In this document: positions 3,271-61,464 of the stretch, one piece after another
How positions within the stretch are numbered: position 1 is the stretch's first letter
Layout: the number at the start of each line of letters is the position of its first letter
IMG/VR virus record: IMGVR_UViG_3300045988_109366
Location: 32,001 to 96,000 of that record
DNA: 64,000 bases
Strand: one strand, 5' to 3'
DNA from: a virus
The notes under the pieces: generated by a model
The model's database searches: none
What the model was told of the DNA's origin: nothing
Seen by the model: only the letters and a program-made list of their open reading frames with translations
Translations under genes and position numbers: made by a program

Positions 3271-4905
3271 ATGGAAGATTTTCAAGGTAAATACAATGGT
3301 AAGCAGATAGAGCAGCTTTTGGATAAGGCTAATGATATTGATCTTTCCAAATACGCTCTTAAGACGGATAACGCTCCTACCGCCACAAAATTACAGGCAG
3401 CTAGGACTATAGTGCTGTCCGGGGCTGTTAGCGGTAGTGTCTCATCGGACTTTGGAAGTAATGTTACTATCTCCACGACATTGTCGAACTTCGACGCCTC
3501 TAAGATCGCGTCCGGAACCATCAGCATAGATAGGTTACCTAAGGCGGCTTTGGAGAGATTGATCGTGGTAGCTGATGATACGGCAAGGTTTAAACTTACT
3601 ACAGCCACGGCTCAGGTCGGGGACACGGTTAAGGTAACGGCCACGAATAAGATGTATCTGGTCAAGGATGATAGTAAGTTGAATACCGAGGATGGTTACG
3701 AGCCTTATACGGCAAGTTCGGCGTCATCTGTGCCATGGTCTGGAGTGACCGGCAAACCTAGCACCTTCGCTCCACCTACGGCGGCGGCCTCCACCTTAGG
3801 TGGCGTAAAGGTAGGATACACGACTTCTGGCAAGAACTATAAGTTACAGGTTGACGCTTCTGGTAACGCTTTTGTTAATGTTCCATGGACAGATAATAAT
3901 ACGACCTATAATCAGGCCACGGCTGACACTTTAGGATTGGTTAAGATCGGTTATACCTCTAGTGGGAAGAACTATGCCGTATCCTTGGATGCTAATGGTA
4001 AGATGTATGTGAATGTCCCTTGGACTGACAATAACACGACTTACACCCAAGCCACGAGCGATAAATTGGGTCTTGTTAAGATCGGGTATTCGGCTAACGG
4101 AAAGAATTACCCGGTAGCTCTTGACGGAAATGGTAAGATGTATGTGAACGTTCCGTGGACGGACACCAACACCACATATTCCAATATGGGGGCGGCGACC
4201 TCCTCGGCTGCGGGAAAGGCCGGCTTGGTCCCCGCACCTGCCGCCGGAGCGCAAGCCAAGTATCTTCGTGGTGATGGAACATGGCAAACCCCTCCTAATA
4301 CCACATATAGCAACATGGGTGGAGCGACGTCCTCAGCCGCAGGATCGGCGGGATTGGTACCCGCTCCGGCTGCCGGCAAGCAAACCTCTTTCCTTCGTGG
4401 TGATGGCACATGGGTCGTGCCTACCAATACCACGTACGGGTTGGCCTCCACTTCCGCCAACGGCTTATTGAGACAGCTTAATGGTAGCACCTCTAATTTT
4501 ATGCGTGGAGATGGTACATGGGCTACCCCTCCTAACACGACATATGCCGTGGCCAACGAATCCACTAATGGATTGATGGCGGCCGCCGATAAGAAGACCA
4601 TGAACAGGCTTATAGGGGTTAATACGGTCACGACATTAGCCAGCTTACCTATCTCTAAAAGAAGCATCACGGCCACGCTATCAGCGGCTACCACCCTATC
4701 CGTGGCGTCAGGTATGCAGATAGGAGAGGAGCTGATGATCAGGTGTGTCCCGTCTGCGGTCTTTACTCAAGCCATACCAAATTCAGGAGCTTATGTAAGC
4801 ATGAGTGGTACTTCTATAACCACTACGGCTAACAAGCCTTTCGAGATAAATATCTGGTGTTACGCTTCAGGCAAGTATAGCATCGCTGTTAAAGAACAAG
4901 ATTAA
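3271..4905 (+). CDS. tail fibre protein with internal tandem repeats
   Basis: Three ~45-aa repeats (GLVKIGY..GKNY....NGKMYVNVPWTDNNTTY). Then three repeats of SSAAG.AGLVPAPAAG...LRGDGTW..P.NTTY, typical of phage fibre repeats. Start moved from TTG 3250 to ATG 3271. Confidence 0.75.
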   Translation: MEDFQGKYNGKQIEQLLDKANDIDLSKYALKTDNAPTATKLQAARTIVLSGAVSGSVSSDFGSNVTISTTLSNFDASKIASGTISIDRLPKAALERLIVVADDTARFKLTTATAQVGDTVKVTATNKMYLVKDDSKLNTEDGYEPYTASSASSVPWSGVTGKPSTFAPPTAAASTLGGVKVGYTTSGKNYKLQVDASGNAFVNVPWTDNNTTYNQATADTLGLVKIGYTSSGKNYAVSLDANGKMYVNVPWTDNNTTYTQATSDKLGLVKIGYSANGKNYPVALDGNGKMYVNVPWTDTNTTYSNMGAATSSAAGKAGLVPAPAAGAQAKYLRGDGTWQTPPNTTYSNMGGATSSAAGSAGLVPAPAAGKQTSFLRGDGTWVVPTNTTYGLASTSANGLLRQLNGSTSNFMRGDGTWATPPNTTYAVANESTNGLMAAADKKTMNRLIGVNTVTTLASLPISKRSITATLSAATTLSVASGMQIGEELMIRCVPSAVFTQAIPNSGAYVSMSGTSITTTANKPFEINIWCYASGKYSIAVKEQD

Positions 4906-4915
4906 AGAATAGATT

Positions 4916-5965
4916 ATGGCATATACATATATAAACAGGGAAATATATCCCAATATGTTGGTTTTAGACGAACCTCTTGATGATAATTACGCTAAGGGTA
5001 ATAGTTATGATGATTATATTAATGGCAATCCGATTCCATGGATAGAGCTGAGACAAGAACAACTTTCGTTCAAGGAAGCTAATCCTAAAGCCACGGTTAA
5101 GGAGATCATTGAGGCTAGATTAGATGAGTCAAGGGTTCTTAACGAGGAGAAATCGGCTAAATATGAGGAGCTGAGATCTTATGAGACTGAAAATCTCCAT
5201 GAGTTTTTCTTGGATGATCAAGATATTTATATTCCTGAATATGACAGACGTAGCGCTTTGGCTGATGGGGCTATAGTCGGTAAGATAACGATTATGGGTC
5301 TGGAGTTCGATATGACGGAAGGCAAGATCTTGATCGGGATGATGGATAAGTACGATAACGATCTGACAACGGCGTTAGGGGACAAGCAAAAGCAGATCAG
5401 TATAGCCACTACCGTAGAACAGGTGAGAGCTGTCGATGTTCAGTCCGGCTATCCTGATAAGGTAAGTGTTACCACGGCGTACATCCAGCAGCAGGCGAAG
5501 GAGAAGGATGCTCTCGATCCTCAAAAAGTAGCTGTCGAGTTTTCTAGGATGTTGGTTAATGACAAATCTTTATCCTTATCATCCAACGAGAAATTGGATG
5601 TTAAGGTCCTATTTCCTATATGGGGACAAGAAGGAGCGGAGTTCGGGCTATCCGTGGATACCGGATTTTGTCTTAGGGTAGTTAAGGAGGATACGGATAT
5701 CCTTTACGAGGTTATCCAGCCTCATACGTTATCGTCAGAATGGGAGCCTGGACTCAGTACGGCCTCCTTATATAAGGTTGTTGACAAGGAGCATGCCGGG
5801 ACTATAGGTGATCCTATCCCTTATTTCCCTCCTATGGAGATATTTAAGGATAAATATTACATTCAGAACGCTGACGTGTATAAATGCACAAGGGATAGTG
5901 GAACTCCTCTTAGTCATAATTTAAAGGACTTAGTAGGGTTGTATGTTGAGGTTGTACAGGGCTAG
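4916..5965 (+). CDS. hypothetical protein downstream of tail fibre (possible fibre-associated protein)
   Basis: 349-codon ORF, 10 nt after the fibre gene. No diagnostic motif. Confidence 0.55.
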   Translation: MAYTYINREIYPNMLVLDEPLDDNYAKGNSYDDYINGNPIPWIELRQEQLSFKEANPKATVKEIIEARLDESRVLNEEKSAKYEELRSYETENLHEFFLDDQDIYIPEYDRRSALADGAIVGKITIMGLEFDMTEGKILIGMMDKYDNDLTTALGDKQKQISIATTVEQVRAVDVQSGYPDKVSVTTAYIQQQAKEKDALDPQKVAVEFSRMLVNDKSLSLSSNEKLDVKVLFPIWGQEGAEFGLSVDTGFCLRVVKEDTDILYEVIQPHTLSSEWEPGLSTASLYKVVDKEHAGTIGDPIPYFPPMEIFKDKYYIQNADVYKCTRDSGTPLSHNLKDLVGLYVEVVQG

Positions 5966-8709: not shown

Positions 8710-11700
8710 ATGTCGAGTTGCGTAATTAAAAGAAATAGTAAGGGTAAGATAACCCGTGTCTTGACCCCTTCCGGCGAGGTATCTACCTTGTTCGACAAGA
8801 TAGCGGGTATAGCCGCCGTAAGTGACCTTAATAAGGCCGCTGAGGCTTATATGACTATTTATAACGATAAGTTCAGGTCTAAGTTCGGAGACTGGACGAG
8901 ATCCGTGCCAAGAAATAAGGAGGCCGCCAGATCCATAAGCGCCAGACTTAGCGCCAGCGAGTGGGGGCAACTTATGTCAGCCAAGGTCCTGTCCGCCATA
9001 AGCGACATGGATGCCCCGGCGTTGGCCAGAAACCTTGGGAATAGCGACAGTGTCGTGGCTTATCTTACCTCCGGAGAGGTAGGTGATGTCAATGATATGG
9101 CGGTGGTAGATACATCCACGGTACAGGAGGTGGATCTGGATTCCATAAACGAGGATAATATTGGCGATACGATACTGAAAGAGGCGTCATGGGATGATAT
9201 AAGGGCTATCAGGGAGAATATAGATATTAAGGAGACAGCCCGTATGTTATGGAAGGCCGTGGAAAGCGCTTTTACCGGGCAACGACCTAATATTAGGGTG
9301 AAGGGTGGAAATATAGATGGTGAGATCATATTTTCTGGTAATGTCTTGCCGTTAAATAATATTGAGAATTATACTCCTCCATCTTCAAGACTGGTATATG
9401 ATTCCGGTGAGCCTCGCCTGTTCTTTAGATCGGATGACGGCAAGATACACGACTCTTACGCCAACGCCATAAAAGGATCGTCCGGTGGGCGGGTCGAGGC
9501 CGGGTTCTTGGCCGGCAGTGTCGAGGAGAGCGACGTCCCGTCCGGTACGGCTGACATCTCCTTTGGCTCTTCCTCCATAACCCTCAATAACAGTGAGTCA
9601 TTTATCCCGGTCCTTGGTATTAGCTCAAACTCAGATATAAGTACTCGTGGAGGGTTTATTAATTACCTTATCAAGAAAGGTATGTTGAGTGGGGAACGTA
9701 TAAGACTAGGGGATAGATATTATCTTACTGGAGCCGGCAATTCTGATGGTCTTAAGATCTATAACGCTATGAATGCCTTATCCAGCCTCAGGAATAGGTT
9801 TGGAAGTCAATCCTCTGAGATGAACGTATTGGGTTCTATAGGTTTTGATACGGAGGTAAGTAATGATCTTGATCTTATCACGACATCGGGGGAGAAGGTT
9901 ACGGTAAGCAGACCGGAGATCAAGGGTATGTTAAGGCAAGGTAAGTTCGAGGAGCTTAATAATAAGTATGATGGATTCATGGAGCTAGCCTTGTCGTTGA
10001 TGATGGAGGATAACGCTTTGTACGGGAGTAACGTCCGTGGGGTTATCGAGAATGAGAAGGCGGAAGATCTCCAGAATAGGACTGATATCACCAATATCTT
10101 ATCCACGTTAGGCATCCGTGTGATGGGTATGTCTGAGTATATGGATAAGTATAAGATGCGTAATGGCGTGGATCCTTCGGCTAGGGCCTTGTCTGACATG
10201 GCTAATGGGGTTATCGCTTTGGCTGAGGGGGCTACGGTAGAGGATCTCAATGAGGAGGTGGCTCATTTCTTGATCGATACTTATCGTAACCAGCAGGAGA
10301 TTGATGAGGTGCTGGATTCTGTTGTTGGTACGTCGTTATGGAATCAGTTCGCTGGTCGTTACTATGAGGTGTATGGGAAGGAATACCAAGGAGAGGAGTT
10401 GGATCGGATGGTGAAGCGGGAGATCCTAGGCAAGACGTTGGCCCAGCGGTTCGTGCCGGGCATGGAACAGGCGGTAGAGGATCTGGCCTCGTCTGAGGAC
10501 GCCCAGCTCTCCTTGTTTGGCAGGATGGTACGAGCTATACGTAATTTCTTCTCTAGCCAAAGATCGGATTTAAATAAGGTACTTGATAGGATAAAGGAGT
10601 CGGCGTTAGCTGATGATCCAAGCGCCTTTGACGTGCTTCTGCTAAAGGATAGCAATCATCTCATGTATTCGTTATCGGACGTTGACGTGGCTAATAAGTT
10701 GATCAAGAACGGTAGGTCATTGGAAAGGCTATACACTAGATTGCAGAGGATGAGGTCAAGCCAAAGCCAGAGGATCGGTGAGAGTATCTCCCTTCTTCGT
10801 GATATAGGCGAGAAGGTGAGACAAGTCGGTGGTGAGCTTAATAAAAACAACAACCTGCTATCCACCAAGAGTGTCATAGCGACCGCCAAGGCTGAGGTGG
10901 AGTATTTGGTCACTGTTGCCAGTAGCTTGCGTAAGAGCGACAAGGGACTTGATTATGAGACGATACAGGTTATCGATAACGTGTACGGGGAGATAGTGCC
11001 TTTGATCAGGGATCTTCGTGGATTCGTCAATAATCAGGCGGCGGATTATTATGGCGTCAATAAGGTTGGTATGGTAGAGGATATGGATGATATATTACGT
11101 ATGGCTGAGACATCCATGTCCGATATAAACGCCCTTCGAAGTGATCGTAATGAGGACTGGCTGGATGGACAGCTTCGGATGTTTAATATCCCGGAAAGAT
11201 ATTGGAATGGGATAAAGAAGTTGATAAATAACATCCATAAGGATATCAATGTCATGTCCCGATTCTTTGGCACACTGGAGCATAGTGGTAACGCTATTTT
11301 AGGTATGTTAGGCCAACGTCTAGCCAAGGCCCATAATGAAGCCCATATCGAAGGTATATCTAATATCAATAAGATGACTAGGATGATGAAAGAGCGTGGA
11401 TGGGGGATAAAGGATAATGAGGATCTTATACAGAAGATAAATGGGAAGAACTCGGATTACCTTGACTCGTCCCGTGATTTCGCCAAATACGATTTACTAT
11501 ACAGGACCGAGCAGGCTAAGGCTATTATCGATATATATGATCTTAAGAATGTTACGGGTAAGACCGAGAAACAACTTATCGATCTTCTTCTATCCGATAG
11601 AGGCCTTAAGGTGAAGACCCGTGACGACATAGTAGGATATGACGGGGATAAGCCTATTACGAAGGAGGTATATCATGTATTCAAACCTACCATCCAGAAT

Positions 11701-14700
11701 TTTGATATCTCGGACATGACGTTCGAGGATCAGCAACGATATCTCGACGCGATAAATAGGTGGTTGGATGAGAACCGAGAGAAACCTATGGTGCAGGCTT
11801 ATTACGATAAGATCGAGAAAGTTAATAAGAAGGTCGAGGAAAGACTGGGTCGTAGGGTATCGCAAGCCACGTCCGATTTCATGACCCGTATCCGCAGGAG
11901 CCGGTATGTGGCTATGGATAAGTTCGTGAGGAACGGGAAGGTCGATTGGAAGGCGTTTCAATCCGATCCTATAGCTTGGAGATCTTATCTGGATATTTTA
12001 CGTGATAGGGCTATAGCCAAGAGCGAGTGGTATTCCGATGGGACACCAAAGGAAGAGGGATCCGAGGCTCTGATGATGTCCGAGGAGATCAAGGCATGGG
12101 ACGAGGCGTGGGCCGAGGAGTTCGGGAATACCAACGAGGGTCGTAAGGCTTCCGCCGAGTTCAAGGAGATACTTCGTGGGATAGAGCGGTCCGAGGGCGG
12201 CAAGGCTGCGTTTGAGTTCCTGCTAGCTGGCGGTCATCTTGGTTTCTCTAAGGATATGTGGGGATCCGAGGAGGGTGATTATTACGAGAATCTTGTTGAT
12301 AAGATCACGGAGCAATCTGTATCATCATCAAGGATAGAGAAGGTAGAGGAGGCGATGGCGACAATAAACGAGATCAATGACCAGCTAAGGCCTTTGCTTA
12401 TCCAGTACCGGGATAGCACGAGATACGGGGAATATGATTTCGATAGGTTACGTGGATCCGCCTCATTAAGAAAGATAAACGAGTTATATGATCGTCTGGC
12501 TGAGGCTAAGAGCGTTATTAACGCCACCGCTTCCGCTGAGGCTATTGAGATGGATATGCCTGATACGGTGGAGAGTGGAGTCACGGATTCTTACCGTAAC
12601 GCTTTAAGGGATGCCATGGCATACGACAAGGGTATGGATGAGATTAAATTCGCCAAGGAACATATGTCTGCCAGCTCCCGGAGTCAGGTGGATAGGATGG
12701 CCGCCAAGTTATCTCGGAAAAACCCGTCATGGACGACCGTGGAGGCATCGTTTTTGAGAAGGAAATACGGTCCTGGCTTCAATAATAAGCTAGCTAACGA
12801 CATAGCGATGGGTAAGACTGACAAGATCCTTGTCGAGTACGCCAGGACCCGGCTGTATCCTTATATGAGGAGATACTCTCCCAAGGGATATTCTGATTTC
12901 GTTAGGAAGATAAATAACGGTACGTATAAGGTATCCGAGTTCTTTGATGCCATAGAAAATGGTATATCTAAGGAAGAGAGCGTATCCCGTTTCGGGTTTG
13001 ATATTAATATGATCGATCTGACGATCAATAACCAGTGGCTTGATGAGGCTGACGCCGAGAGTTCTTTCCGTAATCCTAATTATAATCCCGATCTGGGTTA
13101 TGGATATCATACGCCTAGGTTCGATAAGTACAAGAACGAGGCTTTTTTCAAGAAATACGGTATTACCAACGAAGGGGAGGAAGCTACGATCAATAAGGAT
13201 AAGTGGGAGATGAGGAAGGAGCTTCTTAACATAAGCCGTAAGGCTATGGAGGATTATGATGAGCGGTTCAGGAATATCTACCAAATACCACAGATATCCA
13301 AGGGCGGCGTGGAGAGGATGGTGCAGGCCGGGGTTGACCCGAAGGCGGCCATCGGAAACGCCGTACGTGACATCGTTGGCGAGAGGGTGGATGATCCCAT
13401 ACATGGTCAAGGACAAGACCTAGGAGGGCTTGATGAGAACGATAACAAATATCGCATGATCCCCAAGTACTATCTGAGCAAGCTAGAGAATGCCGATGAC
13501 GTGTCCCATGACTTCGCCTACTCCTATTCCATGTTATCCTTACAAGCGACCTCTTACAAGTATAAGAGGGCGGCCTTGGATGATGTCATGGGATACAGGA
13601 ACATGATGCTGGAGACGCAATACGACGGCGGTAAGAACCCAGAGGCCACTCACGCCTATAGAATGTTTCAGGACTGGGTTAACGCCAGTATCTATGACGT
13701 CAGGATAAACAATAAGCGGGCGGAATGGGATATAGGCAATTATAAGGTCGATCTTAATAAGCTGGCTCTTATGTTCACCAAATTTGTGTCCAAATCCAAC
13801 TTAGGCTTCTCCCCGTTCGTGGCGGCTACCGGTGCCCTTACCGGGCAGGCCAACTTCCTTTTGGAAGGTATGGTAGGACAGTACATAAGCAAGGACTCCA
13901 TGAAATACGCTTATGGAGAAGCTCAGAAACAGTTAAGTACGTACGTGTCTGAGATCGGGGACATAAATCGTACCAATAAGTTATATGTTGTCGGTGAGGC
14001 CCTAGGCGTATTCAACGTTCGTAACCGTGTAAGATCGGCGGCATATAACAAGATCTGGAGAACCTTATTCCGGGACCTGCCGTTTAAGATGATGGAGGTT
14101 CTTAACTCCCCGTTGGACCCGCAGGTCATTATCTCGGTCATGGATGATACCCGCCTATACGAAGGTCAGTTCTGGTCATACTCCAATTTCAAGGAGATGA
14201 TGATGAAGGACAGGAATATGTCCGCTAACGAGGCTAAACGCGATTGGGAGCGTTTAAGGGATTATTCTATGTGGAACATGGTAGATGTCAAGGACGGAAA
14301 GATCGTGGCTAAGAACGAGGCTAACAAGGATATTATAGACCGATATATACCCACCTTGTCCAGTAGGGTCAGGAGCATGGTGCAGATCTGTGACGGCGCC
14401 TTGAACGAGCAGAACCGGGTGGGGGCTAGCCGGAACGCTATCCTTAATATGGTGCTGCCTCACCGTGGATGGTTTATATTGGCCGTACAGCGGGCGTATA
14501 AGAAAGCTGGTTTCAATTTCCAGACCAACCAGTTCGAGGAAGGATATATGAGAACATTATGGAGATTGGCCGGAAATGTCTATGGCTCGATGTCCGAGGG
14601 TAGGATGGGGGAGGCATATGACGTGCTTAAGGAAGAGTATGATAAGCTTACCCCCTACGAGCAGATTAATATCAAGAGATCGATTATCAATATGGCGGTA

Positions 14701-23530: not shown

Positions 23531-24646
23531 TTATTGGGTTAGAAGATTCTGTTTTTCTAACCCAAATTTCTTTATGTTCCTAGCGGCAAGAAGATCCCTA
23601 TCATTTACGGCTCCACAAGAAGGGCAAGTCCAGATACGATCGGATAATTTAAGATCCCGATGTATGTACCCACATCCGCACATCTTGGAGCTAGGTTCGA
23701 ATCTACCAACCCGAATCAAATTCACGCCCTTCCAATCCGACTTATAGCTTAATATTCTAAAGAACTCGCTCCATGAGCATGAAGCTATGCTATTAGCCAG
23801 CTTATGGTTCTTCATCATCCCCTCCACGTTAAGATCCTCAATAACCACGGTTTGGTTCTCGCCTAGGATATTGTTGACCACATGGTGCAGGAAGTTATGT
23901 CTTTGATTTGATATACGCTCGTATGCCTTAGCTACAGCTAATCTGGCTCTTTCTCTTCTTCGGCTTCCTTTTTGTTTGCGAGTTAATCTACGTTGTAAGC
24001 ATCTTAACCGTGCGGAAGACCTTTCAAGATATTTCGGGTTCTCGAAAATCGAACCGTTCGATAAGGTTGCGAATGTCTTTATCCCGACATCGATACCTAC
24101 AGCGGTATCCGGATTTATAGGAGACTTGTCCGGCAATTTGAGGCCGTTATCTACAAGGATACTGATATAGTACTTATTTGTAGGTGATTTAGATACAGTG
24201 ACAGTCCCTATTTTACCTTTAAACACTTGGTTTGAGTAGAATCTTATCCATCCTAATTTCGGTAACTTAATCCTGTTGTTATCGAAATCAATATGAACAT
24301 TGAGGATATTCTTGAACGATCTCCTTGATCCTCGCTTTGACTTGAATTTTGGGAAGCCTTTCTTTTCCCTAAAAAATCTGGTGAAAGCCTGATCAAGATT
24401 CCTTATTGACTGTTGCAGACATTCGTTAGACACCTCATTAAGCCAAGTATATTCCTCTTGTTTCTTCAAATCAGTCAGTTTCTTGCATAGATCAACAGCC
24501 GTAAGTGATTTTTTATCATCTTGATACGCTTCGATTTTTGTCTGCAAAGCCCAGTTATAGATAAATCGTGTTGATCCGAAAGTCCTCTCTATTAGAGAGA
24601 TCTGTTCGGATGTCGGATTTAGTCTATATTTATAAGCTTTTAGCAT
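23531..24646 (-). CDS. tnpB: TnpB RNA-guided endonuclease (IS200/IS605-type OrfB), apparently intact
   Basis: N-terminal MLKAYKYRLNPT. RuvC-I VGIDVGIKT, RuvC-II VVIEDLNVEGM, zinc finger CGCG..CPSCG, RuvC-III NDRDLLAARNI. Start set at M43 of the tracked ORF. Confidence 0.9.
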   Translation of the reverse strand: MLKAYKYRLNPTSEQISLIERTFGSTRFIYNWALQTKIEAYQDDKKSLTAVDLCKKLTDLKKQEEYTWLNEVSNECLQQSIRNLDQAFTRFFREKKGFPKFKSKRGSRRSFKNILNVHIDFDNNRIKLPKLGWIRFYSNQVFKGKIGTVTVSKSPTNKYYISILVDNGLKLPDKSPINPDTAVGIDVGIKTFATLSNGSIFENPKYLERSSARLRCLQRRLTRKQKGSRRRERARLAVAKAYERISNQRHNFLHHVVNNILGENQTVVIEDLNVEGMMKNHKLANSIASCSWSEFFRILSYKSDWKGVNLIRVGRFEPSSKMCGCGYIHRDLKLSDRIWTCPSCGAVNDRDLLAARNIKKFGLEKQNLLTQ

Positions 24647-24680
24647 ACTACTGTCTTTTGATACAAAGATGTGATATAAA

Positions 24681-24746
24681 AAGTAATTATATACGATTTT
24701 ACTTATGTCATACAACATAATAGTGTAAAGATGTATATAATTACTT
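24681..24746. repeat. 14-bp perfect inverted repeat (hairpin) at the left end of element B
   Basis: AAGTAATTATATAC at 24681-24694 and GTATATAATTACTT at 24733-24746, with a 38-nt spacer. Confidence 0.8.
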
Positions 24747-24768
24747 AATGTTATTTCGGATATGGATG

Positions 24769-25044
24769 TCATTTTTTGTCATATATCAACATAACGTTGA
24801 TAAGATCAGCCTTTCTAACCATCCCCTCAAGTTTATTAAAGCCATCCATATTATCCCCACTGACGATAATAGTAGGATATACTTCTATGCCGTACTTGGA
24901 TATCTCCTCCTCCGTGGCTTTGTTCTCTGGGATCTGGTTTAACGTAACCTCACCCTCATACTCCTGTAATGTGTTGGCGATAATATACCGCATGTAGTCG
25001 CTGCACTCAGCGTCTTTCTTCGTGAAAAAATCAATTCTTACCAT
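24769..25044 (-). CDS. thioredoxin-fold-like small protein (weak call)
   Basis: 91 aa with a beta-alpha-beta start and a ..YPTIIV.. segment. No CxxC motif. Confidence 0.3.
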   Translation of the reverse strand: MVRIDFFTKKDAECSDYMRYIIANTLQEYEGEVTLNQIPENKATEEEISKYGIEVYPTIIVSGDNMDGFNKLEGMVRKADLINVMLIYDKK

Positions 25045-31547: not shown

Positions 31548-32246
31548 CTAAATCGACATTTTCAATCTTCTACCTAATTCTTTTTTTATATCCGATATCC
31601 TTTCGATATCCATCTTAACATCGCCTGTGATAGCGTATTCCTTATCCATTCTCTTTGGGGGATCCGGAAGCCGGCTTATGGCGAACAACCATGCCAGCTC
31701 CTTGTTCTTGTTCTCCCTAAGATACAAGTCAGACGTCATGCCATACATTTTTATGATCGTATCGAATAACGTTGATTCCGATAAACTCATATGCACGCTA
31801 TACACATTTGATGGTTTCCAGATCAAGTTATCCAATCTCATCGTATACTCACGTTTAAGATCTATGTGGGATATTACGGCCCTTACTATAGGTTCTTCCT
31901 TGAAGTTGGTGTTAGCCACAAACCAGATAAGCCTTTTTTCCACCTCCTTGATAGCTCCTGTATCCTTACCCGTATCGTTATATACCCCAACGATACGGTC
32001 CCGGATCCCCTCGACCTCCGGTGTCAGACCGGGTGTCTCTATCAGCATCAGCAGCGATCCTCCCCTTGGCGTTATCTTCCACTTCCCATTCTTCTGAAGC
32101 TCAATATAACCAGATGCTTTATAACTATCTATTTTCTCCTTTGGAATGGTGTTAGCCATCTCTTCTTTTTGCCGGATCATCAAAAGATATCCAACATCAG
32201 ACATCGTTAATCCTGATGTCATCATCTGTTCAAAATTTATATACAT
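31548..32246 (-). CDS. hypothetical protein
   Basis: 232-codon ORF in the replication module. Confidence 0.6.
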   Translation of the reverse strand: MYINFEQMMTSGLTMSDVGYLLMIRQKEEMANTIPKEKIDSYKASGYIELQKNGKWKITPRGGSLLMLIETPGLTPEVEGIRDRIVGVYNDTGKDTGAIKEVEKRLIWFVANTNFKEEPIVRAVISHIDLKREYTMRLDNLIWKPSNVYSVHMSLSESTLFDTIIKMYGMTSDLYLRENKNKELAWLFAISRLPDPPKRMDKEYAITGDVKMDIERISDIKKELGRRLKMSI

Positions 32247-40907: not shown

Positions 40908-41069
40908 GACATTTTGTTTTTGAATTAAATTAAATAAACATTATTAATAGTTAATACCATCCTTTCTTCTATCATTCATATTTATTCTTTTAAGTAATTA
41001 TATACAACCTTACACTACAAACATACTGAATTATTTTTATATATAAATAATAATCCATATATTCGTGCC

Positions 41070-42293
41070 ATGAGGCTAGTTGAACAACATATAATCAAGC
41101 AAAGCTCAATATATTACAATGAGATTCAAGATCTGTTGCATAAGTGCAAAAACTTATACAACAAAGGATTGTATGTTGTTAGACAACATTACTTTCAATA
41201 TAAGAATGATAATACCGTTAAGTATAAATACCTCAACTACTACCCTCTTGAAAAGAAGTTAAGAACAGAAGATGACGTTGACTATCGTGCTTTACCGTCA
41301 CCGGTAGCCCAACAGGTATTGATAATGGTCGACCAGAATTTCAAGTCCTTCTTCAATCTTCTTAATAAGAAAGGTAGAGGTGAATATTCTGAGAAAGTAA
41401 GAATACCTAAGTATCTTGATAAAGATGGGATGTTTATGGCTGTTTTCCCAACAACAGCCTTTTCTCAAAAATGGATAAAGCAAGGTATTATTAAGTTGCC
41501 AAAGCAATTCTCTTTCACCACGAGAACTAACAAGCAAAATATCCAACAACTCAGGTTCGTCCCTAAGAATGGATATATTATACTTGAAATCGTATATAAC
41601 AAGAAAGAGAAAGATCTTATATATGATAACGGTAATTACCTTGGTATTGATCTTGGACTTAACAATTTAGCATCTTGTGTATCAAATACCGGTTCCTGCT
41701 TTATCATCAACGGTAAGCCTCTAAAATCTATCAACCAGTATTATAATAAAAGATTAGCATATTTAAAATCTAAATTAAAAGACAATAAACAAGTCTCAAA
41801 GCAAATAAGGTCGTTAACCAACAAAAGGAATAACAAGATCAAGGATTATCTGCATAAAGCCAGTAGGGTATTGATTAATCATGTAGTCTCCAATGGCATT
41901 AATACGATCATAATCGGTCATAATAGATGTTGGAAACAAGAGATCAATATCGGAAAGCGGAATAATCAGAACTTTGTTTCTATTCCTTTTAATATGTTTA
42001 TCTCAATGATATCATATAAGGCTACACTTGAGGGAATCAATGTTAAGATCGTTGAGGAATCCTATACCTCAAAATGTAGTTTCTTGGATAACGAGCAGAT
42101 TCGTAAGCATGAGGAATATGTCGGAAGACGTATCAAACGAGGATTATTCAAGACATCTTCCGGCAATATTATTAACGCCGATATCAACGCTGCATTTAAC
42201 ATCATTAGAAAATCGGCAAAAGAAGCCTTCGATGTAAGTATCTTGCCAGAAGGTAGAGGGTTTTGGTGGAACCCGATACGGATTTCCGTATAG
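41070..42293 (+). CDS. tnpB: TnpB-family RNA-guided endonuclease, zinc-finger-less clade
   Basis: VEQHIIK...LYNKGLYVVRQ N-terminus. RuvC-I YLGIDLGLNN, IIIGHNRCWKQE, EESYTSKCSFLD, RuvC-III NADINAAFNIIRK. Confidence 0.85.
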   Translation: MRLVEQHIIKQSSIYYNEIQDLLHKCKNLYNKGLYVVRQHYFQYKNDNTVKYKYLNYYPLEKKLRTEDDVDYRALPSPVAQQVLIMVDQNFKSFFNLLNKKGRGEYSEKVRIPKYLDKDGMFMAVFPTTAFSQKWIKQGIIKLPKQFSFTTRTNKQNIQQLRFVPKNGYIILEIVYNKKEKDLIYDNGNYLGIDLGLNNLASCVSNTGSCFIINGKPLKSINQYYNKRLAYLKSKLKDNKQVSKQIRSLTNKRNNKIKDYLHKASRVLINHVVSNGINTIIIGHNRCWKQEINIGKRNNQNFVSIPFNMFISMISYKATLEGINVKIVEESYTSKCSFLDNEQIRKHEEYVGRRIKRGLFKTSSGNIINADINAAFNIIRKSAKEAFDVSILPEGRGFWWNPIRISV

Positions 42294-42339
42294 ATATATA
42301 TCATTTTACGATTTTAGTGTAAAATGGTATATAATCACC
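42252..42339 (+). ncRNA. candidate omega-RNA 3' scaffold of element A
   Basis: Overlaps the tnpB 3' end. Hairpins at 42258-42274 and 42276-42291 are conserved with compensatory changes in the copy at 45948-46037. Confidence 0.5.
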
Positions 42340-42753
42340 TACCCCAACATCTGCTCCATCTTCTTTAATCCAATTATCCGTATCGCAATGCCAACAATAT
42401 CCTGTTTTGGAATCCTCTTTATGAGAATGAGACCCACAAGTAGCGCACCAATAATTATCATCCGTATCGTATGCGTAGCTTTTATCCTCATGCATCTTAG
42501 CTACTCTGACCATTCTATCTTCTAGCAGTTCTTTTAGATAAGGGCATTCATAAGGTCTATCCTCCTCCCGTAATATCCAAAGCTCGATATCCGTCATCTC
42601 CCCCATCCTGTCCGTGCACATCCGCTCGGCGGCATGACGTACGCTATCTTCCGGCATCCCCGGGACTATCTCCCGGATCACTGCCTCCATCCTCTCTTGG
42701 TATTCGGTGTCTACCTTAGCCACCAAGCCTTCTAATTTATCTATTAAGCTCAT
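42301..42753 (-). CDS. hypothetical Cys-rich protein; last 12 codons encoded by the element A terminus
   Basis: 150-codon ORF. ...GADVGV|GDYIPFYTKIVK*, where the part after the bar is the reverse complement of the element end. Confidence 0.6.
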   Translation of the reverse strand: MSLIDKLEGLVAKVDTEYQERMEAVIREIVPGMPEDSVRHAAERMCTDRMGEMTDIELWILREEDRPYECPYLKELLEDRMVRVAKMHEDKSYAYDTDDNYWCATCGSHSHKEDSKTGYCWHCDTDNWIKEDGADVGVGDYIPFYTKIVK

Positions 42754-45462: not shown

Positions 45463-45702
45463 ATCATTTTAGTTTAATCATTATACTTGTGGAAAATAAA
45501 ATCCGCACATTCTCCGGGGAGTGTTCCTGCGTCATTACAACGGTAGAATCCTTGTGTTTCCAAATCTACATCTACCGGATAACCTTCTGCTGCTTCCAAG
45601 AAGCGTTTGATTTCCTCACATTCTTCATCCGTTAATCCAGTGTAATCATCATTGATTAACGGGCAAGCCCAATAAATCGGGAGCCTGTATCTTATTATCT
45701 CT

Positions 45703-46037
45703 GGCGATTATATACTATTTTACACCAGATATGTTATAAAACATACAGATGTTATTTAATTTCATATTCTTCTTTTCTAACTTTGTTTCACCCAATCGAA
45801 TCACATAGTCCCTTGTTTCGGACAAGACGATTGGGTAAAAGAGGTCTTTGATATAAGGTTTTACCCTAAAAAAATATTCGTTGGGTAAGTAAAATCAAAA
45901 ACGTTTTGTTTAGTAAAAGAATCCGGCGATCTCACTTTTGAGCAACCGGTAGAGGGTATTGGTGATACCCAGTACGGATTTTCGTACAAATGCATATCAT
46001 TTCTCATTTTTTTGGTGTAAAATGGTATATAATCACC
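45703..46037 (+). mobile_element. non-autonomous (MITE-like) derivative of the element A family
   Basis: 24-bp TIRs with 22/24 identity. 8-bp direct repeat TTATCTCT at 45695-45702 and 46038-46045. No ORF inside. The left ~45 nt and right ~130 nt are homologous to element A. Confidence 0.8.
45948..46037 (+). ncRNA. orphan omega-RNA-like module (no adjacent nuclease gene)
   Basis: About 80% identical to 42252-42339. Hairpins at 45954-45970 and 45972-45987 keep their pairing through double substitutions. Confidence 0.45.
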
Positions 46038-46049
46038 TTATCTCTATAT

Positions 46050-46445
46050 TCATAACTTCATCAATTTACAATATGAATCTTCAAATATAGGGATCAAACC
46101 TTGTTCCCTAAAATACGCTGTTGCAACTTTAAAAGCGTACAAAGGGTTCACTTCTTGTATCTTATTCTTTTTTACTCCCTGGGTAATAATTGGATTACAA
46201 CAATAGAATTTTTCATTACCTAAACTTCCAAATACGCTATCTACATTATACTCATAGCAATTAGTACCTCCCAATATCAGCAAATCACATCCAGTCTCTC
46301 TGGTTCCAAGGATAAACGATTTATTCTTATTTGCTGGAAGCATGAATATTTCCTTATCCATATTAAACCAATCATTCTGATTATATTTTACATCCCGGAG
46401 AACGATCTCATCAATCTCATGGGCATATTCTTCTTGTGTTTTCAT
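46050..46445 (-). CDS. hypothetical protein
   Basis: 131-codon ORF. Confidence 0.6.
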   Translation of the reverse strand: MKTQEEYAHEIDEIVLRDVKYNQNDWFNMDKEIFMLPANKNKSFILGTRETGCDLLILGGTNCYEYNVDSVFGSLGNEKFYCCNPIITQGVKKNKIQEVNPLYAFKVATAYFREQGLIPIFEDSYCKLMKL

Positions 46446-61118: not shown

Positions 61119-61194
61119 TGGGGAGTGGGGGAATCGAACCCTTATCCACGCTACGATTAGGAATCGTAAATTCTATCCGTTAAATTAACTCCCC
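61119..61194 (-). tRNA. tRNA-Arg (anticodon CCT)
   Basis: 7-bp acceptor stem GGGGAGT/ACTCCCC. Perfect anticodon stem TACGA/TCGTA with loop TTCCTAA. T-loop TTCGATT. The T-stem is weak (3 GC pairs plus 2 A-C). Confidence 0.6.
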
Positions 61195-61390: not shown

Positions 61391-61464
61391 TGGACCCGGC
61401 CGGGCTTGAACCGACAACCTTCTGGTTATGAGCCAATTGCTCTTACCGATTGAGCTACGGGTCC
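61391..61464 (-). tRNA. tRNA with CAT anticodon (elongator Met, or Ile2 if lysidine-modified)
   Basis: Cloverleaf GGACCCG-TA-GCTC..GAGC-A-ATTGG-CTCATAA-CCAGA-AGGTT-GTCGG-TTCAAGC-CCGGC-CGGGTCC-A. The G1-C72 pair argues against an initiator. Confidence 0.85.

Follow-up and report, generated by a model that had tools for sequence, protein, structure and literature searches.

The open reading frame (ORF)-less palindrome-associated transposable elements (PATEs) often encode omega-RNAs that require the nuclease TnpB in trans (Meers et al. 2023, PMC10055086). Inverted repeats and target duplications are both lacking from IS200/IS605 and IS607 elements (PMC13565253, PMC6188088). The main text of Altae-Tran et al. 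2023 describes DDE-associated TnpB branches, DDE-1 to DDE-6, with inverted terminal repeats, naming IS630 (PMC10691335). In Fanzor1, the 5' duplication is part of the target-adjacent motif (TAM), the 3' duplication is part of the scaffold, and there is no pseudoknot (PMC13565253). Here, an ORF-less element of 335 bp, termed the orphan, was analyzed in a 64,000-nucleotide stretch of viral DNA (positions 32,001 to 96,000 of IMG/VR record IMGVR_UViG_3300045988_109366; the window). The window is part of a human-gut crAss-like phage, whose nearest complete relative, csAssE-Sib (OR575929), is an epsilon crAss-like phage (PMC11054128). A reading of the window made from its letters alone (the sequence-only reading) had proposed that the orphan keeps the omega-RNA-like 3' end of a tnpB element and could be loaded in trans by the TnpB encoded 3.4 kb away. 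At a rough probability of 60%, the orphan is a non-autonomous IS1595-type miniature transposon that carries, as cargo, the omega-RNA gene of an IS607-lineage TnpB and is served by TnpB in trans.

Related copies were collected by scanning IMG/VR with the right-end sequence, which returned at least 119 loci, nearly all on gut phage contigs of 75-160 kb. The numbers of orphan copies, sites and contigs taken from the viral scans are counts among the matches listed and are lower bounds. Elements of several sizes are bounded by the same ends: the tnpB-bearing A-type (1347 bp) and B-type (1319-1331 bp) classes, the orphan type (M-type; 323-338 bp), and a 51-bp palindrome. The orphan and its boundaries are as follows.

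45703 to 46037, plus strand: the orphan element (M-type), a 335-bp ORF-less miniature inverted-repeat transposon, defined by its terminal inverted repeats (TIRs) and by empty alleles
45695 to 45702, no strand: left copy of the 8-bp target-site duplication (TSD), TTATCTCT, identical to 46038-46045 and present as a single copy in empty alleles
46038 to 46045, no strand: right copy of the TSD, TTATCTCT, a single copy in empty alleles and the first 8 nt of the predicted guide
45703 to 45725, plus strand: left TIR, GGCGATTATATACTATTTTACAC, a repeat that also bounds bacterial elements encoding DDE_Tnp_IS1595
46015 to 46037, plus strand: right TIR, which also supplies the 3' arm of helix P6 and the unpaired ...AAUCACC tail

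A related phage fragment (L002, MT837795) is collinear with the window on both sides of the orphan, lacks the 335 bp and carries TTATCTCT once; ten further empty alleles of this site were present among the fetched loci. The inverted repeats extend over 23-43 nt, with 45703-45745 pairing with 45995-46037 by repeat finder. In IMG/VR crAss-like contigs, the orphan family comprises at least 75 unique copies at no fewer than 13 sites, and perfect 8-bp duplications were observed at 13 distinct orphan sites, 12 A-type sites and 2 B-type sites among the matches listed. Empty alleles were located by BLAST for 19 of the 25 sites checked, ruling out a chance origin of the 8-bp repeat. The combination of TIRs, TSD and empty sites therefore identifies the orphan as a true, recently mobile miniature element and not a decayed end, and the data show that it was inserted by a DDE-type event. 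ORFs within it are spurious only (at most 48 aa), and no IS1595 transposase was found in the window.

The affiliation of the ends was established by scanning 185,579 species genomes with a degenerate end pattern, which returned at least 120 loci in Bacteroidota, Melainabacteria, Acidobacteriota and other phyla. Bacterial elements bounded by GGNNATTATATACNANTTTACAC are 1.6-6 kb long and contain ORFs of ∼310 aa that match PF12762 (DDE_Tnp_IS1595; E values of 1e-29 to 1e-46), the IS1595 zinc ribbon being present in some and absent in others. The same repeat, with 8-bp duplications, also bounds bacterial miniature elements of 130-300 bp. No tnpB was detected by tblastn in 120 bacterial loci sharing the inverted repeat. 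In the window, the following tnpB-bearing elements have the same ends as the orphan.

40993 to 42339, plus strand: element A, 1347 bp, sharing the inverted repeats of the orphan, with a degenerate left end (AGTAATT...) and without an intact duplication here
41070 to 42293, plus strand: tnpB_A, encoding a candidate trans-acting nuclease of 407 aa with Pfam OrfB_IS605 and Cas12f1-like_TNB domains
42215 to 42339, plus strand: the predicted 3' module (P3-P6) of the element A omega-RNA, overlapping the last 79 nt of tnpB and scoring 135.3 bits
23427 to 24745, minus strand: element B, 1319 bp, likewise tnpB-bearing and sharing the TIRs, but with an unrelated TnpB and a different internal 3' region

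Copies of element A elsewhere have perfect 8-bp duplications. Given the repeats and duplication shared with the bacterial DDE elements, the orphan, element A and element B are all non-autonomous IS1595-type elements, and the orphan itself combines the shared TIRs and 8-bp TSD with occurrence at multiple sites and no transposase gene. Since the tnpB modules lie between IS1595-type ends without a transposase, mobilization must occur in trans. Across 2.5 Mb of phage loci, an IS1595 transposase was found at one locus only, a 125-kb viral contig (L109). Here, at 11601-12768, an IS1595-family transposase gene, 48% identical to a bacterial one, adjoins a matching left TIR; the second end was not found within the stretch covered. 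The transposase and TIR together indicate that phage-borne autonomous copies exist. The right-end terminus is fixed as GGTGATT (the reverse complement of AATCACC) in 73 of 79 orphan, 57 of 68 A-type and all 18 B-type ends. The left end of the orphan is mostly GGTTATT or GGCGATT, and the bacterial repeats are mostly GGTAATT. An IS200/IS605 (PATE) end structure was rejected, given the inverted repeats and the 8-bp duplication. Identity as an IS607 element was likewise rejected, because the elements of the window contain no tnpA and have IS1595-type ends, the protein lineage alone being IS607-like. Thus, the orphan is an IS1595-type miniature transposon with TIRs and a TSD, and not an IS200/IS605-style end remnant.

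The 3' part of the orphan is homologous to the 3' end of tnpB_A. The sequence-only reading had put the identity of 45948-46037 with 42252-42339 at about 80%, in close agreement with the 81% over 90 nt obtained by BLAST. MAFFT and repeat finding resolved this into 78% identity between 45948-46011 and 42252-42315 and 97% between 46010-46038 and 42312-42340; for the 23-nt shared end sequence, 0 matches are expected in shuffles. The homology reaches upstream to ∼45912, beyond the stretch first named. Two hairpins proposed at the outset were confirmed letter by letter, namely GGGTTT-TGGTG-GAACCC (42258-42274) versus GGGTAT-TGGTG-ATACCC (45954-45970) and ATACGG-ATTT-CCGTAT (42276-42291) versus GTACGG-ATTT-TCGTAC (45972-45987), and the differences between the copies are indeed pair-preserving. 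A further stem claimed upstream, CCCAATCG with CGATTGGG at 45791-45835, is also present. A third helix, CCGG(N19)CCGG in the orphan and CCTTC(N19)GAAGG in element A, adds two further double changes, and the hairpin within it is CTCA/TGAG in the orphan and GTAAG/CTTGC in element A.

Overall, the 3' 125 nt of the orphan match 42215-42339 helix for helix, with the tnpB_A stop codon (42291-42293) inside the module and the right end as its terminus. The scaffold thus has the same sense as tnpB, takes in the 3' end of that gene and extends to the right end, the position characteristic of an omega-RNA. In translation, the orphan reads GRGYW*YPVRIFV where the C terminus of TnpB reads GRGFWWNPVRISV. 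Given this in-frame stop, the 3' part of the orphan is formerly coding sequence from which coding constraint is gone, yet the pairs have been repaired. In each of five independent internal-deletion derivatives of element A (166-833 bp), 100 nt or more of the 3' end has been retained, compared with as little as 25-33 nt of the 5' end, a pattern that fits selective retention of the 3' module.

Three alignments were examined for changes on both sides of a pair.

Orphan copies, 250 nt, 32 sequences: 61 pairs in 9 helices; 99.6% of 1952 cells paired; 5 double-change pairs; 0-2 in slid controls
A-type plus orphan, 125 nt, 37 sequences: 31 pairs in 5 helices; 97% paired; 10 double-change pairs; 0-2 in slid controls
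A-type tnpB elements alone, 63 sequences: 47 pairs; 9 double-change pairs, some inside the ORF

In the larger alignments, therefore, the pairs were kept and not broken, which was the outcome on which the sequence-only reading depended. The covariation score of the A-type plus orphan alignment was 0.302, and slid controls did not exceed 0.077. Of the five double-change pairs among the orphans, four fall in one hairpin, where TTACCC/GGGTAA becomes CCATCTT/AAGATGG or CTATCTT/AAGATAG, and among the A-type elements an inner-helix pair inside the ORF is split between 31 C:G and 27 G:C. One-sided changes gave G-U and A-C cells at 223:4, 173:4 and 508:29 in the three alignments, and this large excess of G-U places the structure on the plus (tnpB-sense) strand. 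A covariance model of the shared 125 nt scored 145.7 bits with the orphan and 135.3 bits with element A and had no other full match in the window. Outside the training set, it matched the 3' end of a tnpB of 50% identity (37 bits, E ∼1e-6), in which the outer P3 helix is CACU/AGUG and thus compensated. At the level of sequence comparison, the alignments show a six-helix structure maintained on the plus strand by compensatory changes. Its parts, and the elements expected around it, are as follows.

45778 to 45785, plus strand: promoter-like box TAACTTTG, fitting the Bacteroidetes -7 box TAnnTTTG and present in 70 of 75 unique copies
45791 to 46037, plus strand: predicted omega-RNA scaffold of ∼247 nt, from RNAalifold, pair counts and the covariance model (145.7 bits)
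45791-45835, plus strand: P1, the first stem, with an inner stem pairing 45808-45811 with 45820-45823
45847-45852 with 45894-45899, plus strand: P2, enclosing an inner hairpin of 45860-45866 with 45883-45889
45923-45926 with 45946-45949, plus strand: P3, with an inner stem of 45931-45934 with 45939-45942
45954-45970, plus strand: P4, the first of the two hairpins originally proposed
45972-45987, plus strand: P5, the second of these hairpins
45994-46002 with 46020-46028, plus strand: P6, in which right-repeat bases AAATGGTAT pair with upstream ATATCATTT
46029-46037, plus strand: unpaired tail AUAAUCACC, the last 9 nt of the scaffold
45961 to 45965, plus strand: GGTGA in the P4 loop, a candidate pseudoknot partner complementary to right-end TCACC (46033-46037)
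46038 to 46057, plus strand: predicted guide TTATCTCTATATTCATAACT, consisting of the TSD and downstream flank, by analogy with TnpB omega-RNAs

Substitutions in the right repeat are compensated in the upstream arm of P6 among 63 A-type sequences. The promoter-like box was recognized from the Bacteroidetes -7 consensus TAnnTTTG (PMC7366714) and would set the RNA start at ∼45791, the foot of P1. A scan for sigma-70 promoters and terminators gave nothing above shuffles, sigma-70 being the wrong promoter model for Bacteroidetes. In prokaryotic omega-RNAs, the 3' end of the scaffold forms a pseudoknot with an internal loop (PMC13565253). By analogy, the complementarity of the P4 loop GGUG(A/G) to terminal UCACC suggests a 3'-end pseudoknot here; the unrelated B-type scaffold also has a hairpin loop, UGGUGAA. 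Natural variants lend partial support, pairing being kept in CCACC, CTACC, TTACC and TCACT and an end pair being broken in TCACA, GGTGT and AGTGA. The DNA past CACC differs site by site at every copy. At the site occupied in the window, three empty alleles of related phages match the predicted guide perfectly behind TTA, and six carry C at guide position 4.

The sequence context of insertion was determined from 27 distinct duplication-bearing sites, oriented by RNA direction after reconstruction of the empty site. In what follows, a hyphen marks the start of the duplicated target.

45692 to 45694, plus strand: TTA, a TAM-like motif directly 5' of the duplicated target

Position -3 was T in 21 of the 27 sites, position -2 was W in 26 and position -1 was A in 26; the first duplicated base was T in all 27 and the second was W in 26. 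The polar motif TWA-T was found at 26/27 sites compared with 3/27 in reverse orientation (Fisher p ∼1e-10). By contrast, the same test on bacterial IS1595 sites gave 10/35 and 12/35, with no polar motif. A symmetric target preference is expected of a DDE transposase, and a polar motif therefore calls for a polar reader. When all distinct left flanks were considered, position -3 was T in orphans (17/22) and in A-type elements (24/33) but A in B-type elements (11/13). B-type sites read AAA-T and orphan and A-type sites TWA-T, despite inverted repeats common to all three. The motif accordingly tracks the nuclease lineage, as a TAM would, and groups the orphan with TnpB_A. As judged from the insertion sites, a putative adjacent motif lies 5' of the guide match, as in omega-RNA systems, and an empty site would consist of that motif and the guide match. 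In an empty genome, the motif leads straight into the 8-mer and its downstream flank; where the genome is occupied, that stretch lies beyond the right end and is hence the predicted guide. In an occupied genome, the left TSD provides 8 matching nt before the transposon end is reached, so that the full motif and predicted guide match occur in empty genomes only.

TnpB_A belongs to a protein family of at least 7983 members. Residues D194, E330 and D371 are invariant in 29 family members of 51-87% identity. As a single sequence, TnpB_A had no match in the PDB, and the family profile matched ISDra2 TnpB (E 8e-8) and Cas12f structures. The domains, the invariant D/E/D residues and the profile matches support the view that TnpB_A is probably an active enzyme. 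The gene of a relative of 55% identity follows directly on that of a serine recombinase, which is the IS607 arrangement, and the ends there are unrelated. Orphan and A-type tnpB occur together on at least 12 IMG/VR contigs, and among the complete genomes of the phage collection csAssE-Sib alone has the orphan (94.7% identity) and alone has A-type tnpB. This co-occurrence and the TWA-T motif common to orphan and A-type sites suggest that TnpB_A may act in trans on the orphan RNA.

The mechanism proposed for the orphan would operate as follows. The Bacteroidetes-type promoter TAACTTTG (45778-45785) would drive an RNA of ∼250 nt that reads through the right inverted repeat, as its last hairpin and unpaired AAUCACC tail, into the flank. 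The guide would consist of the duplicated 8 nt and ∼8-12 nt downstream (TTATCTCTATATTCAT...). TnpB_A made from element A (41070-42293) would bind this RNA in trans, and the complex would recognize TWA and then the guide match, present in insertion-free genomes only. The empty allele of a co-infecting phage would be cut and either destroyed or converted by recombination, such that the orphan would spread without encoding a protein. For movement to new sites, the orphan would depend on an IS1595 transposase from the host or, on rare occasions, from a phage. Such cutting of the empty alleles of co-infecting phages would be what PMC13565253 calls non-restorative homing.

Several observations weigh against this mechanism or parts of it. 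Single-sequence folding gave z scores of -2.3 for the plus strand and -4.5 for the minus strand and does not favor the plus strand, and Rfam returned no family at gathering score, with chance-level matches alone at E values up to 10. Diversity along 75 orphan copies is flat and low, and the RNA part has no excess conservation; in a family this young, the number of independent compensatory events is necessarily small, and most double changes trace to the split between A-type and orphan and to one orphan sub-lineage. By blastn and blastx, the upstream 220 nt of the orphan matched neither element A nor any of 120 TnpB relatives beyond the last 90 nt or 13 codons, so that acceptance of the orphan scaffold by TnpB_A would have to extend to a part without counterpart in element A. 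The pseudoknot has the standing of a suggestion. Among the matches listed, the orphan and A-type tnpB were found together at one locus in 2 of 119 cases; as they are seldom neighbors, their 3.4-kb spacing in the window is incidental. Finally, it is conceivable that the polar motif reflects a target preference of the local transposase, the comparison having been made with bacterial IS1595 sites.

The low, flat diversity over the whole element and the concentration of compensatory changes at a few lineage splits would fit a young IS1595-type miniature transposon and nothing more, in which the 3' region is a recent tnpB leftover or subterminal DNA needed in cis and there is no functional RNA. The right inverted repeat also lies inside P6, such that transposase binding explains part of the conservation. 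This explanation is nonetheless unlikely. The 130-300-bp bacterial miniatures and the 51-bp mini element move or persist without this region, and all five independent deletion derivatives of element A retain 100 nt or more of the 3' end. Ten pairs changed on both sides at 97% pairing, against 0-2 in slid controls, and pairs repaired in a sequence that an in-frame stop shows to be free of coding constraint favor a functional RNA over a decaying coding remnant, as had originally been argued. A G-U to A-C ratio of ∼40 to 1 would not be produced by a double-stranded DNA-binding site, and the polar site motif would be left without explanation.

The RNA might instead be structured but not serve as a homing guide for TnpB, acting as a TnpB-titrating decoy, a regulatory small RNA, or a promoter/terminator cassette for neighboring genes. 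A conserved promoter-like box and strong structure would fit any stable RNA equally, element A contains nothing equivalent to the upstream 160 nt (P1-P2), and the insertion lies in the 5' end of a small gene. On the other hand, the 3' 125 nt end at the transposon boundary like a guide scaffold and correspond in each helix to a module overlapping tnpB, the A-type-specific polar motif is to be expected only of a flank that serves as target, and copies occur in many unrelated contexts. Such a role is accordingly considered improbable. That the hairpins are single-stranded DNA transposition signals of the Y1-recognized IS200/IS605 type and not RNA is very hard to credit, for although G-T wobble is also tolerable in top-strand DNA hairpins and TnpB elements are classically IS200/IS605 members, the inverted repeats and 8-bp duplication are absent from IS200/IS605 and IS607, the repeats match those of DDE IS1595 elements, no copy was found to have a Y1 transposase nearby, and the closest tnpA-linked relative has a serine recombinase and different ends.

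Beyond the preferred reading of the orphan as an IS1595-type transposon with a guide-RNA cargo, a wider interpretation is advanced tentatively, at somewhat less than even odds: a three-tier selfish system of crAss-like gut phages. TnpB and guide modules of two unrelated lineages would have been re-housed in DDE (IS1595) ends, a prokaryotic counterpart of the Fanzor1 arrangement, with the inverted repeat absorbed into the scaffold and the adjacent motif shifted 8 bp by the target duplication. The protein-less, guide-only element would parasitize both transposase and nuclease and serve, in contests between co-infecting phages, as an RNA-programmed gene drive or as a weapon of exclusion. Insertions would be amplified only where they had chanced to land behind the right motif in the right orientation, a filter that would account for the polar site signature.

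A number of further observations concern the orphan and its relatives. The insertion point of the orphan falls in codons 3-6 of a 78-aa phage gene, of which L002 has an intact copy (4876-5112, minus strand).

45474 to 45702, minus strand: body of this small phage gene (78 aa in L002), from ORF comparison with L002; its first five codons are now at 46038-46052

In the window, the other 73 codons still form an open frame but have lost their start codon. In csAssE-Sib, annotation pipelines place a minus-strand gene for a 73-aa "hypothetical protein" (WOZ57376.1) over the orphan-type element (L425; OR575929 135411-135632), a point of practical relevance; it is probably a spurious gene call, and the left end of this copy is degenerate. 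In some alleles (L272, L319, L077 and L043), 2, 3, 11 or 6 nt have been lost exactly at the junction of right end and TSD, where the predicted guide starts, and these losses may reflect abortive excision or guide change. A composite in L247 (729-1675) begins with the left end of an A-type element and the 5' portion of tnpB, continues with unrelated sequence and closes with a complete orphan-type element. The 51-bp perfect palindrome (L005 1633-1683, L007 and ∼33 other loci) contains the two inverted repeats and the A-type P6 loop GATTTTA alone and is flanked by TAA/TTA and not by an 8-bp duplication. In other phages, it lies ∼35 bp from the position of element A in the window (homologous flank ∼40915-40958), and it could be a minimal element or a relic of tnpB capture.

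Some A-type elements (L328, L004, L113 and L403) join the left flank of one site to the right flank of a different one; in L328, the left flank is that of element A in the window and the right flank is that of an orphan site. The mixed flanks suggest recombination between copies that rearranges phage genomes, and element A of the window (TTCTTTTA versus TACCCCAA) may be such a recombinant. In L003 (MT839900, 159-5070), 4.9 kb of unrelated DNA with several ORFs takes the place of window positions 40991-42343, and the position of element A looks like a replacement hot spot. TnpB_A and its family are without the CxxC...CxxC zinc-finger cysteines between RuvC-II and RuvC-III, a single Cys being present in SKCSFLDNE...; TnpB_B has these cysteines. 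A TnpB homologue labeled "Parabacteroides goldsteinii" derives from a 4.3-kb fragment with two tnpB genes and is uninformative on the host. TnpB_A and TnpB_B are 24% identical over 147 aa. TnpB_B, encoded on the minus strand at ∼23531-24646, has an HTH_OrfB_IS605 domain, and the 3' region of element B is GC-rich. The mechanically called ORF of element B (23531-24772) begins outside its left end; the true start is probably the methionine of MLKAYKYRLNP near 24646. Elsewhere in the window, Rfam identified two tRNA genes on the minus strand (61119-61194 and 61391-61464; 45 and 66 bits).

If the orphan RNA is loaded by TnpB_A, then a guide alone can be the unit of selfish spread. The logic of TnpB and omega-RNA would not be tied to the scarless IS200/IS605 and IS607 elements but would tolerate a target-duplicating transposon, providing a natural prokaryotic model for the coexistence of Fanzor-like nucleases with DDE transposons. 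The nuclease, at 407 aa compact and lacking zinc-finger cysteines, would form with the two diverged natural scaffolds a ready pair for the study of trans-loading and scaffold tolerance, and adjacent motifs would be readable from insertion sites at the level of sequence. The crAss-like phages are among the most abundant in the human gut; given this abundance, RNA-guided homing or exclusion would, if real, be an unrecognized force in their population genetics.

In comparison with known systems, the orphan resembles a PATE in being protein-less, in keeping transposon ends and a predicted omega-RNA, and in what would be reliance on TnpB and a transposase in trans. In PATEs, the guide is read from DNA flanking the right end, as is predicted for the orphan. 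PATEs, however, have asymmetric hairpin ends and no target duplication and are inserted by Y1 directly 3' of the TAM, whereas the orphan has TIRs, an 8-bp TSD and IS1595 (DDE) ends, with the TAM-like motif separated from the left end by the TSD, and resides in phage genomes. As in the DDE-associated TnpBs, to judge from the main text of PMC10691335, tnpB lies within ∼250 bp of an inverted-repeat end, and solo copies lie between ends that belong to a transposase encoded at another locus. The partners described in that main text are of the IS630 type and not IS1595, whereas in the present case one IS1595-type end is common to a guide-only derivative and to TnpBs of two unrelated lineages, of which one descends from IS607. 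In the literature, with PMC10691335 compared by its main text, no paper was found that links IS1595 and TnpB in this manner. The eukaryotic Fanzor1 systems likewise place a TnpB-family nuclease in DDE cut-and-paste transposons, with a duplication between the element and the rest of the target; in the orphan, by contrast, the motif is outside the TSD, the TSD seems to be the guide start, a pseudoknot is plausible, and the host is a bacteriophage. With the IS1595 family, the orphan shares inverted repeats (GGnnATTATATAC...), the 8-bp TSD, and the existence of passenger-carrying and ORF-less derivatives, but ordinary members carry a DDE_Tnp_IS1595 gene or nothing and show neither a polar site motif nor a fixed right-end terminus. 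The proposed cutting of the element-free allele of a co-infecting phage, with conversion or exclusion, parallels the free-standing homing endonucleases of T-even phages (PMC13565253), from which the orphan would differ in recognition by an RNA guide and in being a selfish unit without any nuclease gene. In summary, a guide-only element acting in trans has already been described as a concept for the IS605-type PATEs (PMC10055086); the novelty lies in the DDE/IS1595 housing with target duplication, in a TIR absorbed into the scaffold, and in the phage setting.

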